Shown: piece by piece, positions 5,062 through 23,828 of the stretch | How positions within the stretch are numbered: position 1 is the first letter of the stretch | Layout: each line of letters starts with the position of its first letter | IMG/VR virus record: IMGVR_UViG_2531839668_000005 | Origin: a virus | Lineage: Duplodnaviria > Heunggongvirae > Uroviricota > Caudoviricetes | Direction: 5' to 3' (one strand) | Length of the DNA: 30,815 nt | Program-made: the position numbers and the translations under genes | The notes under the pieces: model-generated | Databases searched by the model: none | What the model saw: only the letters and a program-made list of their open reading frames with translations | Told to the model about the DNA's origin: nothing

Positions 5062-5084
5062 GGCGGGATTATTTTATTGTGGTC

Positions 5085-5363
5085 TTACTTATCAACGACC
5101 TGCCAGCCATCATCTGTTTTGACCAGCTTGACAGCCGCTGTGCGTTTTTCGTTATCGACAACAGCTGTTACATTGCATTTATAGCTTTTATCCGATAGTT
5201 TTTCGCAGTCGTGTTTTTTGACTGATTTTAACTTCCGCAGCATGTCAGGCGTGATATCGTTTCTCGCTATGGATTTAACGATGGCATTCGTCTGCTCCAC
5301 GACCTTATTCATCGCAGTGTAAATATCCTGCTCAGACGGTTCACTGGTGCAGCCGGTCAGCAA
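5085..5363 (-). CDS. putative lipoprotein, mature domain; signal peptide lies in an adjacent frame (possible frameshift)
   Basis: ORF begins L-T-G-C (lipobox) at a TTG. An ATG at 5402-5404 encodes MKTYAFTTLIASIF then stops; adding one T to the T6 run (plus-strand A6 at 5362-5367) would give MKTYAFTTLIASIFLLTGC..., a canonical lipoprotein signal peptide. Confidence 0.5.
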   Translation of the reverse strand: MLTGCTSEPSEQDIYTAMNKVVEQTNAIVKSIARNDITPDMLRKLKSVKKHDCEKLSDKSYKCNVTAVVDNEKRTAAVKLVKTDDGWQVVDK

Positions 5364-5430
5364 AAAATGGACGCAATGAGTGTGGTAAATGCATATGTTT
5401 TCATAAAATAATCCCAGACGGTAGAGTACG

Positions 5431-5829
5431 TTATTGAAAAAGGCCGGTTTTCATCTTGCTGTTGTTTTCAGAGAACGTCCACTTGCTGACGGTTTCGCCT
5501 TTAAATTCGATTTCCAGCGTTTTGGCCTGCGTCTGTGAACCCCCGGTCAGCAGTCCAATCACGGGAATGAATGTGGTGGCATCAAACTGATTGTTGTCCA
5601 TCGAATAAGTCCATTGTTCATTGCCACTATCAAGTGTAGTTTTGGTTTCGGGCTGACCGAATGCGGTAATGATTTCTGATTTCGTTGTTTTATTTTTGAT
5701 GATTTTCGACTGCAGACTTTGTGATGTTTCTTTTTTTAGATGCTGGTTGCCTGATGTTGAACAGCCAGAAATAAGTAAAGAAGAAATAAAAAACACAGAA
5801 ATCATGAATCTGTTCATAAGTTTTCTCAT
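5431..5829 (-). CDS. putative lipoprotein (132 aa)
   Basis: N-terminus MRKLMNRFMISVFFISSLLISGCS has a hydrophobic signal sequence and a LISGC lipobox. Confidence 0.6.
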   Translation of the reverse strand: MRKLMNRFMISVFFISSLLISGCSTSGNQHLKKETSQSLQSKIIKNKTTKSEIITAFGQPETKTTLDSGNEQWTYSMDNNQFDATTFIPVIGLLTGGSQTQAKTLEIEFKGETVSKWTFSENNSKMKTGLFQ

Positions 5830-5866: not shown

Positions 5867-6142
5867 TCATCTTATAAAAACAACTCTGTCTGCATATTTC
5901 TTTTTAATAATGCAGATAAGAATAATGACGCTGGCAAAAAACGTAATGACTGAGGCAGGAGTGCTGCCGGTCAATGAAAACACTAACCAGGCGAGAGCTA
6001 ATGCCACGAATTGAAACAGGAATGCCACACTGAGTGGACTTTCACCATAGGCCACTTTTGCATGGCAACCTTTGCAAACCCGCACACCGTGTGGGCTTTG
6101 TGTAAAGCAGAAAGGGCAGCTAATCGTTTTATTATCCATCAT
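5867..6142 (-). CDS. small zinc-ribbon membrane protein (91 aa)
   Basis: CPFC...CKGC cysteine pairs at the N-terminus followed by two hydrophobic helices. Confidence 0.5.
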   Translation of the reverse strand: MMDNKTISCPFCFTQSPHGVRVCKGCHAKVAYGESPLSVAFLFQFVALALAWLVFSLTGSTPASVITFFASVIILICIIKKKYADRVVFIR

Positions 6143-6327
6143 GACTCCGTAGCCTGATTTAAGGTGATGTATTTTTGAACATTTTCGATGAATGAACTGC
6201 TTTAGTAAAATTGCTTGTACCGATCGATGGATCTCAGGCGATAGGTTATATCTATTATAACTAGATTATCGATCTATAAAAACGATCGATATCTTATTGA
6301 CTATCACTAAAGTATGGACTAGCTAAC

Positions 6328-7563
6328 TTATGGTGCAGGATGGTTGTTGTTTTTAAATGATTGTTCTTTATTGGTATTTGTTGTCATGGGATGACAGGGT
6401 GTCAGAATATGTAGGTGGAGGATTTGGTGGAAAGGATGTGCAGTGGCATGTAACAGAGACATGCCTCTGCGCCTGAGAAGTGCCACAATATGGACGAGCA
6501 ATACAAGCCATGAATACAGACGACGCTGGCGGGGTATCTGACGAGCTGTATTGTGCAGATTGCTCCTGAGCTGGATGATACCCACTGTCTCCTGTTGTCT
6601 TTCCAGACGAATTTTTTCTTCAAGCTGATGGATTTTCTCCAGAATCGTTTCCCGGTTTGCAGCCTGCTCTTCAGACTCGCATGATGGCACTGGCACTGGC
6701 ACTGGCACTGGCACTGGCACTGGCACTGGCGCGGTTGTAGGTTCTATTGGCCTCTGGGCTTCTTTCAGTAAACTCAGATGCTCAGGCGTAAAATCAATCA
6801 GTGCTTGCAGGGAAGACCAGCCATATTTTTTACCCAACTGAGATGCTTTAAAGGCAATACCCTGGTATTGAAATGAAAATCCACTCATTTTACCCGTAGT
6901 GGCGATATTGGGTTTGCAGGTCACTCCTTCCTGTTCCAGTAAGCGAACAAAGGTTAGTAAATCGGGATGGTGTGTTAATGCATTGTCGAGCAGGGCCTGC
7001 AACAGTGACTTAGGGCAGGGAGCTGCTGTGCGTTCTGCCATCATCAGTTCATTACGGGAAGGCTTCCTTTTATCCTGGCGGCTACTGCCGGTTACACCCG
7101 TAGTTTCGGTGAGGCCGTGTACTCTCTCCAGCTCACTGATAATCCGTGTGCCGATAAGATTTTCATTTTTCCCCAGGTACAGTTTTCCACCGACCATGTT
7201 AATACGACTTGCAATGATATGAATATGCTGCCCATCCGGATCATCGTGCATGATATAGCAGCGAAGATGGGTGTCAGTGAAGCCCATTCGGGCCATATAA
7301 TCGTCAGCGAATGCTGCCCACTGTCTGTTTGACAGTTTCTCACCCTTTGGCAGGCGAAGTGAATTATGCCAGACAGGTTTGGCGACATCGGGACGCAGCA
7401 GTCGGGTGCCTTCAAATTCACTTATAAGCTCAGCAGCAGTGCTACCCGTCATGTTGCCACCGATGACATAAGGCGTGATTTTGTGGTGAGAACCTGACTT
7501 CAGGCTATAAATAACCACACCTGTGAATTGTTTACCCCTTTTTATTTTCTGCATGCCTTTCAT
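6328..7563 (-). CDS. mobA: MobA/relaxase-family mobilization protein (C-terminal boundary uncertain)
   Basis: N-terminal region contains the relaxase histidine triad context (HDDPDGQHIHIIASRI) and an early Tyr; start overlaps the mobC stop. Includes a (Pro-Val)7 linker; sequence after the linker is low-complexity and may not all be coding. Confidence 0.7.
   Translation of the reverse strand: MKGMQKIKRGKQFTGVVIYSLKSGSHHKITPYVIGGNMTGSTAAELISEFEGTRLLRPDVAKPVWHNSLRLPKGEKLSNRQWAAFADDYMARMGFTDTHLRCYIMHDDPDGQHIHIIASRINMVGGKLYLGKNENLIGTRIISELERVHGLTETTGVTGSSRQDKRKPSRNELMMAERTAAPCPKSLLQALLDNALTHHPDLLTFVRLLEQEGVTCKPNIATTGKMSGFSFQYQGIAFKASQLGKKYGWSSLQALIDFTPEHLSLLKEAQRPIEPTTAPVPVPVPVPVPVPVPSCESEEQAANRETILEKIHQLEEKIRLERQQETVGIIQLRSNLHNTARQIPRQRRLYSWLVLLVHIVALLRRRGMSLLHATAHPFHQILHLHILTPCHPMTTNTNKEQSFKNNNHPAP
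6688..6729. repeat. (CACTGG)7 perfect hexanucleotide tandem repeat
   Basis: Seven uninterrupted CACTGG units on the plus strand; on the minus strand they encode the PVPVPVPVPVPVPV linker inside mobA. Confidence 0.95.
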
Positions 7564-7967
7564 GGGTCTGACTCCAGAAATGTTGAGGGAATAAGGTGAT
7601 CCCTGAGAGTTTTGATTTGTCTGCGCAGGGCGAAGAGTTCTGTACGGGTCAGTTCGCTGTCAGGGCTTTTGCTGTCGAGATGACTCAACAGGTAGTTTAA
7701 ATCCTGTGAAAGGCTGCCAAGTTTTATCCATGCTTCACGATTGATTTCTGGCAGAACCGGCGGGAGTTTATTCAGGGAAGCCATCCTGAGCCATTCTCCT
7801 TTTTTATACTGACCTCTTTTACTGTCGAGAATAATTAATTCTTCTTCATTTAATCTGACACTGATGCAGTGATGTCGTATTTCATTCTCAGGAAATTTGT
7901 CAGTATGGAATTTACCGCGTTTTGATACTCTGGTTATATCATCATCATTACTCATGTCACTGTTCAT
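7560..7967 (-). CDS. mobC: MobC-like relaxosome accessory protein
   Basis: 135-aa ORF directly upstream of and overlapping the relaxase gene start, the conserved mobC-mobA arrangement; ELFALRRQIKTLRDHL region is typical of the family. Confidence 0.6.
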   Translation of the reverse strand: MNSDMSNDDDITRVSKRGKFHTDKFPENEIRHHCISVRLNEEELIILDSKRGQYKKGEWLRMASLNKLPPVLPEINREAWIKLGSLSQDLNYLLSHLDSKSPDSELTRTELFALRRQIKTLRDHLIPSTFLESDP

Positions 7968-8168
7968 AGTTATCCTTTTATTTCATGTTTATTACTACAG
8001 ATAACCGATGAAATGAATAAGTCAAGTTGTTACGGGATAAATAATTTAATTATCTGGATTAAAAAAGGTATACCATTTGACAAATAGTATACCCACGAGG
8101 ACATATCAGATTAATGGTCATTAAATGAATCCTTGCAGACTAAGAAAAGGGTTGTTTACTCCAGAGTT

Positions 8169-22747: not shown

Positions 22748-22974
22748 TGGCTGATGCAATGGATCTCGTACAGCAGCGAGTTGAAGAAGAACGCCAACGT
22801 CATATCCGTGCTGCCCGTGCCAAAGCGCCGGGCGTGTCCCGCGTGCTTTGCGTTGAGTGTGAAGCGCCAATTCCGCCAGCACGCCGCCGTGCCATTCCGG
22901 GGGTGCAGCTTTGCATTACCTGTCAGGAAATCGCAGAGCTGAAAGGCAAACATTACAACGGAGGTGCTGTATGA
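22747..22974 (+). CDS. TraR/DksA-family C4 zinc-finger protein
   Basis: 75 aa with CVECEAPIPPARRRAIPGVQLCITCQ (Cys-x2-Cys ... Cys-x2-Cys), as found in the P2-like zinc-finger early protein. Confidence 0.7.
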   Translation: MADAMDLVQQRVEEERQRHIRAARAKAPGVSRVLCVECEAPIPPARRRAIPGVQLCITCQEIAELKGKHYNGGAV

Positions 22975-23828
22975 GCACCATCCTGAAATGGGCGGGAAAT
23001 AAAACCGCCATTATGTCCGAACTGAAAAAACACCTTCCTGCTGGCCCGCGACTGGTTGAACCTTTCGCGGGTTCCTGTGCTGTGATGATGGAGACGGATT
23101 ACCCCAGCTATCTGGTTGCGGATATTAATCCTGATTTAATCAACCTCTATAAAAAGGTTGCTGCTGATTGTGAATCGTTTATATCTCGCGCCAGAGTTTT
23201 ATTTGAGATCGCAAACAGGGAGGTGGCTTATTACAACATAAGGCAGGAGTTTAATTACTCCACTGAAATTACTGATTTCATGAAAGCGGTATATTTCCTG
23301 TATCTCAATCGTCACGGTTACCGTGGTTTATGTCGCTATAACAAGAGCGGGCATTTCAACATTCCCTACGGTAATTATAAAAATCCGTATTTCCCTGAAA
23401 AAGAAATTCGCGCATTTGCAGAAAAGGCCCAGCGAGCAACGTTTATCTGCGCCAGCTTTGATGAAACGCTGGCGATGTTGAAGGCGGGGGATGTGGTGTA
23501 TTGCGATCCGCCGTATGACGGTACGTTTTCCGGCTATCACACTGATGGTTTCACTGAAGATGACCAGTATCACCTGGCATCTGTTCTTGAACATCGGTCA
23601 TCAGAAGGACATCCGGTCATTGTTTCTAACAGTGACACATCCCTGATCCGTTCGCTGTATCGCAATTTTACTCACCACTACATCAAGGCAAAACGCAGCA
23701 TCGGTGTGGCAGCTGGCGAGGGTAAATCAGCAACAGAAATCATTGCTGTTTCCGGGCCGCGCTGCTGGGTGGGATTTGATTATTCGCGTGGCGTGGATAG
23801 TTCTGCCGTGTACGGAGTACGTGCATGA
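22971..23828 (+). CDS. dam: DNA adenine methyltransferase (Dam-like, N6-adenine, DPPY motif)
   Basis: [11 protein letters not shown]...FAGSCAV (AdoMet-binding region) and YCDPPYDG catalytic motif; GGAGG upstream of the ATG at 22971; stop overlaps the gene A start (ATGA). Confidence 0.85.

Follow-up and report, generated by a model that had tools for sequence, protein, structure and literature searches.

A probable OxyR/Dam-type switch between the relaxase gene and a small envelope operon of an enterobacterial mobilizable island

The window analysed here is a stretch of 30,815 nucleotides (IMG/VR virus record IMGVR_UViG_2531839668_000005) of E. coli chromosome, and the locus in question lies on an integrative mobilizable island inserted at ssrA. 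Between the stop codon of a relaxase gene (6328) and the ATG of a Zn-ribbon protein gene (6142), both on the minus strand, there is an intergenic region of 185 base pairs (bp), 6143-6327. Four GATC sites are found inside it, at 6222, 6230, 6271 and 6284, with successive spacings of 8, 41 and 13 bp, and they sit in palindromic context: CGATCG at 6221-6226, ATCGAT at 6223-6228, ATCGATC at 6267-6274 and CGATCGAT at 6283-6290. The original prediction had pointed to this palindromic cluster upstream of the minus-strand gene, and its positions are confirmed. On the grounds of sequence and of analogy with the known switches of gtr and agn43, the region 6204-6287 is probably an OxyR/Dam epigenetic switch of that type for the downstream envelope operon. 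The features of the locus are listed below in the direction of transcription; conservation refers to 81 distinct homologous regions, which are relatives from about 25 genera of Enterobacterales.

7560-7967, minus strand: accessory gene, 135 amino acids (aa), overlapping the relaxase start, in a MobC-type position (from the list of open reading frames, ORFs)
6328-7563, minus strand: relaxase gene, 411 aa, with a MobA/VirD2 nuclease domain, MOBP-like (PF03432, E=1.6e-22)
6184-6302, minus strand: conserved non-coding core (putative switch and promoter), far above the flanking coding DNA in conservation
6284-6287: GATC #4, at one edge of half-site H3, conserved in 80/81, 13 bp from #3 in 81/81
6272-6286, minus strand: H3, promoter-distal OxyR-like half-site, equivalent of gtr 'A', ATCTATAAAAACGAT, score 7/10
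6271-6274: GATC #3, at the other edge of H3, conserved in 81/81, 49 bp from #1 in 78/81
6254-6282, minus strand: secondary promoter candidate within the switch, -35 TTTTTA at 6282-6277, -10 TATAAT at 6259-6254
6241-6255, minus strand: H2, central OxyR-like half-site, equivalent of gtr 'B', ATAGGTTATATCTAT, score 10/10, without GATC
6230-6233: GATC #2, between H1 and H2, not conserved (13/81)
6222-6225: GATC #1, at the edge of H1, overlapping its promoter-distal side, conserved in 81/81
6210-6224, minus strand: H1, promoter-proximal OxyR-like half-site, equivalent of gtr 'C', ATTGCTTGTACCGAT, score 8/10
6181-6209, minus strand: sigma-70 promoter predicted for the Zn-ribbon operon, with -35 TTTACT at 6209-6204, 17-bp spacer, -10 GAAAAT at 6186-6181
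5867-6142, minus strand: first gene of the putatively regulated operon, Zn-ribbon protein of 91 aa, with segments towards the C-terminus that are hydrophobic (its match to DZR is weak, E=0.005, and under the gathering score)
5431-5829, minus strand: second gene, 132-aa lipoprotein, named in RefSeq 'SEN1984 family lipoprotein' or BamE-domain protein
5084-5404, minus strand: third gene, about 106 aa, lipoprotein whose lipobox is LLTGC (from annotation and translation)

Is the cluster more than a chance grouping of GATCs in an AT-rich spacer, with no function? GATC is slightly depleted in the window (89 observed vs 109.6 expected), and among 2000 dinucleotide shuffles of the 30.8 kilobases (kb), 182 (9%) contain four GATCs within at most 66 bp somewhere, as do 5.8% of uniform placements. 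Since equally tight clusters occur in 6-9% of randomised windows, and since the window itself has a tighter one at 28140-28187, the clustering is not significant by itself. This second cluster, with five GATCs in 93 bp overall (28140-28232) and repeated GCATGAGATCGCATGATCGTTTGAGGATCG, belongs to a P2-like prophage, where it has a 224-aa ORF on one side and a TIR-domain cargo gene (28895-29497) on the other; adjoining it is a GC-rich hairpin, after which comes a T run. What decides the question is conservation. The GATCs at 6222, 6271 and 6284 are retained in 80-81 of the 81 divergent relatives at fixed spacing, so that the chance reading is refuted and we put its probability at next to nil. 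The cluster is thus a real feature: judged by conservation, three of its four GATCs are part of a functional element, to which the one at 6230 is probably incidental.

The conservation extends over the whole core. Relaxases of the family are mutually 47-86% identical, yet the core is nearly invariant in the 81 sequences. An alignment of ten divergent spacers (A1) shows invariant blocks amid diverged sequence, and the most distant blastn matches in E. coli align to 6181-6311 of the window only. How widely is the core distributed? When one genome per species was scanned with a relaxase profile, 80 loci were obtained, and in 70 of these a DNA profile (nhmmer) placed the core directly 3' of the relaxase gene. 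These 70 all belong to Enterobacterales, which are Dam+ and OxyR+ according to established knowledge. Among the ten loci lacking the core, four have no or too little sequence past the relaxase match (L053, L086, L087, L088), one is from Winslowiella and has a longer relaxase (L068), and five are from Pseudomonas, Methylobacter and Gallionella and have much longer relaxases (L089, L090, L092-L094). The pair of accessory gene and relaxase is conserved in all loci, and many E. coli islands of varied cargo repeat the module in one order, with the accessory gene first, then the relaxase, the spacer and the small envelope genes. The family is carried by about 5% of complete E. coli genomes (299/5426) and is found in about 70 enterobacterial species.

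The OxyR half-site consensus used here, ATAGnTnnnAnCTAT, is our own rendering of the one reportedly given by Toledano et al. in 1994. It spans 15 bp with five N positions, and half-sites were scored out of the 10 consensus positions. A regulator-binding site overlapping the GATCs was looked for, and the OxyR-like half-sites H1 and H3 were found to overlap the conserved ones: GATC 6271 and 6284 bracket H3, and GATC 6222 overlaps the distal edge of H1. The three half-sites are 15-bp palindromes spread over 77 bp, and H2 is the sole 10/10 match in the window. The background frequency in the window is 0.5% of positions for a score of at least 7 and 0.003% for a score of 10; from these frequencies, such a triple with fixed spacing is expected in well under 1/1000 windows. 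OxyR sites are recognised by at least two half-sites about 32 bp apart, centre to centre, which is the distance bound by OxyR in its reduced form. Here there are three, with a spacing 1 bp shorter, and the H1-H2-H3 distances are 31/31 bp in 78/81 sequences. In sequence architecture, they form two alternative overlapping tetramer sites sharing the GATC-free centre. The variation among the 81 sequences follows the consensus closely, for in H2 the ten consensus positions are conserved and the five N positions are freely variable. Position 13 is G in both H1 and H3 and position 3 is C in H3, each in 81/81. It is by these deviations that the GATCs arise, so the overlap of GATCs with half-sites is gained at the cost of consensus at positions 3 and 13. 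In the distant subfamily, H3 reads ATCGGTATAAACGAT.

Could these sites be an ordinary operator, at which OxyR, another LysR-type regulator (e.g. HdfR) or an island protein represses or activates the operon and no heritable switching takes place? From palindromes and phasing no more follows than the binding of some multimeric protein, and the outer half-sites fit the general LysR pattern T-N11-A. Binding by HdfR upstream of the operon std is hindered by GATC methylation (PMC6735912). On the other hand, the GATC-creating departures are fixed in 81/81 at both outer half-sites and the central site keeps the consensus, which is what selection on the Dam sites themselves would be expected to give. 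The layout of three half-sites with overlapping tetramer sites is the one shown experimentally to phase-vary in gtr (PMC2909390), and the identity to the agn43 switch is high. A plain operator is considered unlikely, yet it is a serious rival.

Which promoter would an OxyR/Dam switch act on? In the core, a generic scan for promoters and terminators gave no match, and for this reason a position weight matrix scan at fixed offset was needed. It gave a promoter-like match with a score of at least 6 in 80/80 relatives, with the -35 box starting 16 nucleotides (nt) after the G of GATC 6222 on the minus strand, while 1% of background positions reach such a score. The -35 box directly adjoins H1, beginning 1 nt after the half-site, so in all 80 relatives the predicted promoter is adjacent to the proximal site; transcription is predicted to start near 6174. 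The -35/-10 hexamers vary by subfamily (TTTACT/GAAAAT, TTGCTA/TAATGT, TTGCCT/CAAAAT and TTGATA/CAAAAT). The secondary candidate has the top score only in some subfamilies, and its mean profile score is 5.8 vs 8.3 for the main one. A plus-strand promoter on the conserved TTGAC at 6297-6301 was rejected, as relatives do not keep the -10 position and distant subfamilies lack TTGAC. The search of Rfam gave no RNA-family support, its sole match being a sub-threshold IS102 RNA (21.8 bits vs a gathering score of 46).

The closest known layout is that of gtr in P22/Salmonella, which has three OxyR half-sites A-B-C and GATCs at -110/-97 and -46/-33 (Broadbent et al. 2010, PMC2909390). There, OxyR on AB gives the ON state and OxyR on BC the OFF state; experiments showed that OxyR binds the half-sites and that GATC methylation prevents this, and bound OxyR in turn blocks methylation (PMC2909390). 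As read from the P22 sequence, A is ATCGGTAACAACGAT, B is ATAGATAAAAACTAT and C is ATCGCTTGTATCGAT. H1 is identical to C at 13/15 positions, and so is the distant-subfamily H3 to A (13/15). The local alignment with gtr scores 18 against a null of 10.9 +/- 1.8 and is matched by 5/1000 shuffles, and the four best nhmmer matches of the core profile in 8 kb of P22 are all within the gtr control region. A blastn search of the core against phages gave no match, the likeness to gtr being at the level of half-sites and architecture only. Both loci have a GATC-free central site, GATCs edging the outer sites (G/ATCG...CGAT/C), a 13-bp GATC pair, a spacing that fits reduced OxyR and a promoter adjoining the proximal half-site, and both are located on a mobile element before envelope-related genes. 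They also differ in several respects. The half-sites are 31/31 bp apart in the island and 32/32 bp in gtr; the conserved GATCs of the island are at intervals of 13 and 49 bp, whereas those of gtr are at 13, 51 and 13 bp; and the proximal half-site has one GATC instead of two. The -35 box lies just after the half-site in the island and overlaps GATC4 in gtr. Downstream are small Zn-ribbon and lipoprotein genes in the former and glycosyltransferase genes (O-antigen glucosylation) in the latter. Finally, gtr is carried by a phage, while the locus here is carried by a relaxase-bearing island.

The comparison with agn43 (flu) of E. coli gives a strong similarity in sequence. The hidden Markov model of the core matches the OxyR/Dam site of agn43 at GATC-II/III (E=3.5e-6), where 32/37 bases of the H3 region are identical in the same transcriptional orientation. 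The local alignment scores 27 against a null of 11.3 +/- 2.0 and is matched by 0/1000 shuffles. The II-III spacing of 13 bp is the same as in the island locus, and both loci are on horizontally acquired islands. However, agn43 has one OxyR site, used for repression only, with three GATCs inside (PMC2909390). In our own reading of its sequence that site is at or downstream of the transcription start, whereas the island half-sites are upstream of the predicted promoter. Despite the strong similarity, the arrangement of a single site with three GATCs at or downstream of the start is not the one found here.

Another relevant case is opvAB of Salmonella, whose half-sites are centred at -148, -116, -75 and -43 and score 10, 8, 10 and 7 (Cota et al. 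2016, PMC4856963). OBSA-OBSB and OBSC-OBSD are each 32 bp apart, 'canonical for the reduced form of OxyR', and a perfect consensus would destroy the GATCs overlapping OBSB and OBSD (PMC4856963). By the published layout, opvAB and the island locus both have half-sites on one helical face at intervals of about 32 bp, a mixture of 10/10 and 7-8/10 scores with GATCs on the weaker sites, and a proximal site directly upstream of the -35 box. The differences are that opvAB has four half-sites and four GATCs with a 32/41/32 spacing and that its activation needs OxyR, while the island locus has three half-sites. The pap system has two GATC boxes 102 bp apart and a PapI-like co-regulator (PMC2909390). 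It shares with the island locus the location of Dam sites within alternative regulator-binding sites, but the Lrp/Dam arrangement of pap is absent, and no Lrp-type layout was seen at the island locus. The original prediction had proposed Dam-dependent epigenetic control after pap and agn43. Its OxyR version, as in agn43 and gtr, holds up in silico, whereas the pap/Lrp layout and the GATC at 6230 drop out of the proposal. To our knowledge, few OxyR/Dam switches are established experimentally, namely agn43, gtr, opvAB and phage Mu mom. The island locus would be an additional member of this class, set apart by the 31-bp spacing, the single proximal GATC and the relaxase-bearing island. No report of it as a Dam/OxyR target was found in the literature; methylome papers on Photorhabdus and Xenorhabdus list unmethylated GATCs, and their text draws no link to the island element.

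How might the switch work? By analogy we infer OxyR binding, differential methylation, bistable expression and the identity of the ON state. The three half-sites, on one helix face and 31 bp apart, would be occupied by an OxyR tetramer on either H2+H1 or H3+H2. With OxyR on H2+H1, the -35 box would be covered and the operon OFF, 6222 would be kept unmethylated, and 6271/6284 would be methylated. With OxyR on H3+H2, the promoter would be free or activated and the operon ON, 6271/6284 being unmethylated and 6222 methylated. As methylated GATCs would block OxyR at the unoccupied half-site, each state would be inherited until replication allows switching. The original prediction also mentioned a Dam-like methyltransferase of the neighbouring prophage, and there is indeed a D12-class N6-adenine methyltransferase gene in the P2-like prophage (22911-23828, PF02086, E=1e-76). 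It would not be required, because host Dam suffices. If expressed and GATC-specific, however, its added Dam activity could bias switches of the OxyR/Dam type; with Dam overproduced, agn43 is locked ON and gtr no longer switches (PMC2909390).

Are there other loci with the same architecture? Viral contigs were searched with the bare pattern GATC-N9-GATC-N14-17-ATAG-N7-CTAT-N14-17-GATC, which gave 23 loci: gtr-type regions, the present island family, a relaxase-adjacent variant with extra GATCs, and a fimbrial operon. In the last (L100, L110, L113, L118, L119), three half-sites and three GATCs are about 240 bp upstream of a fimbrial subunit/chaperone operon, and a -35 box TTTACT directly follows the third half-site; judged by its sequence, this locus is a candidate for OxyR/Dam control. 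Two further loci (L101, L106) have extra GATC-flanked half-sites 27-28 nt past an ORF of about 300 aa, whose C-terminus loosely resembles the island relaxase family, followed by a gene for a 184-aa membrane protein. A similar GATC-rich array is present in L103 and L104, without the upstream ORF.

The position next to the relaxase gene, together with the inverted repeats, first suggested an origin of transfer (oriT). The core would then be an oriT or a relaxosome-assembly site, where the accessory protein or the relaxase has its binding sites in palindromes of the CGATCGAT type, with the GATCs merely belonging to the motif. Several facts fit this. The core is always about 30-100 bp from the relaxase stop codon, even with different downstream genes; it is the most conserved non-coding DNA of the mob module; and it holds inverted repeats and self-matches on the opposite strand. 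The oriTs of MOBP/MOBQ systems (RP4, RSF1010 and the IncQ2 plasmid pGNB2) likewise have inverted repeats and lie beside a MOBP-like relaxase gene, but upstream of the mob genes, whereas the core is downstream of them. Compared by eye, the region upstream of mobC in pGNB2 showed no resemblance to the core. The oriTs of integrative elements are mostly unlocated, and the preprint of Ares-Arroyo et al. 2026 covered only intergenic regions upstream of relaxases. In the present family, the region upstream of the accessory gene (7968-8168, alignment A2) has a mean column identity of 46%, with little conserved but the TTGAC of a -35-like box; thus no oriT-like conserved block was found upstream of the accessory/relaxase operon. 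Surveys confined to the nearest intergenic stretch 5' of the relaxase would arrive at this poorly conserved segment.

The oriT was demoted to a rival because there is no nick motif, no co-variation of repeat arms, and a precise fit to OxyR sites. The nick-site motif that marks an oriT, a few bases 3' of an inverted repeat, was not recognised in the core, which has none of the MOBP or MOBQ type (YATCCTG/Y or GCGCCCT); the sole YATCCTGY nearby (6335-6342) is inside the relaxase gene and is not conserved, and such nick motifs are not enriched (7 observed vs 3.4 expected). In the large inverted repeat, the left arm is invariant, and at the variable position only 23/81 sequences have a complementary base in the right arm. 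Conservation tracks the OxyR consensus positions and the fixed 31-bp phasing, neither of which an oriT hairpin needs. The architecture is shared by gtr and the fimbrial operon, and neither is linked here to a relaxase. The plasmid search gave a single match, a 3.6-kb Salmonella contig with the same module. This contig (L012, OX345050.1, Salmonella enterica, 3582 bp, labelled plasmid) has only the accessory gene, the relaxase, the putative switch, the Zn-ribbon start and one unnamed coding sequence, and is probably a fragment of an island produced in assembly, not a real plasmid. An oriT or relaxosome site in place of a switch is thus distinctly improbable, though the two functions are not mutually exclusive.

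Some points weigh against an OxyR/Dam switch and should be noticed. The outer half-sites reach only 7-8 of 10 consensus positions, and the spacing is 31 bp where gtr and opvAB have 32 bp. The proximal half-site has one GATC and not the pair of gtr, so its blockage by methylation may be weaker. The likeness among short AT-rich palindromic sites containing GATC could be partly convergent. Moreover, the constant position of the core at the 3' end of the relaxase gene, with downstream genes differing in distant subfamilies, would also fit a transfer-related site, and no other conserved non-coding block able to serve as oriT was found near the mob genes.

As for the genes around the putative switch, the relaxase has weak NCBIfam matches to TraI/MobA(P) and 43% identity to MobA of the IncQ2 plasmid pGNB2. 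Its gene contains a perfect tandem repeat of TGGCAC (x7.7, 6685-6730) encoding a (Pro-Val)n linker; in relatives the relaxase has a tract of (PV)n, (PA)n or (TA)n whose length differs, and the linker is possibly slippage-prone or length-variable. The 135-aa accessory protein has no Pfam or NCBIfam match. The 132-aa lipoprotein matches phrog_3135 (E=5e-24), a family without assigned function, and searches of PDB, NCBIfam, PHROGs and PADLOC assigned no function to the proteins of the envelope operon. The third lipoprotein shows a weak match to the Cor superinfection-exclusion family (E=0.003). Among the other genes of the island are those for an integrase and a recombinase, two of the ParB family, and defence-type cargo. 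The cargo includes anti-phage genes, which are NACHT and RelA/SpoT here and a retron, HerA with DUF4297, and HxsB/HxsD in related islands. Upstream of the mob genes, an ankyrin-repeat protein (8169-9122) matches the PADLOC candidate PDC-M72A (E=3e-8), and an IS3-family transposase pair with rve domains (10540-11711) is inserted within the cargo region, at a place where the cargo of related islands differs, NACHT with RelA/SpoT being among it.

Then what would such a switch mean for the family? In its widest form, the proposal is that a gtr-like OxyR/Dam switch is a fixed core component of this enterobacterial family of mobilizable elements, located behind the relaxase and making the envelope operon bistable. 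We put this forward tentatively and hold it, in this full form, to be rather unlikely. Possible roles of the envelope operon are entry or phage exclusion, or some other action on conjugation. As conjugative entry gives DNA with an unmethylated new strand, the switch could be reset at each horizontal transfer, and the epigenetic state could thereby be coupled to mobility; the same DNA might double as a relaxosome site. Since the architecture pattern recovers further candidate switches such as the fimbrial operon, it offers a simple and testable route to Dam/OxyR-controlled loci. If the island locus is an OxyR/Dam switch, a carrier population would contain cells that have the three small envelope proteins beside cells that lack them, which would bear on receptivity to phages or conjugation and on the interpretation of methylome data. 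The locus would also add a widespread family, on islands with anti-phage cargo, to the few established OxyR/Dam switches.

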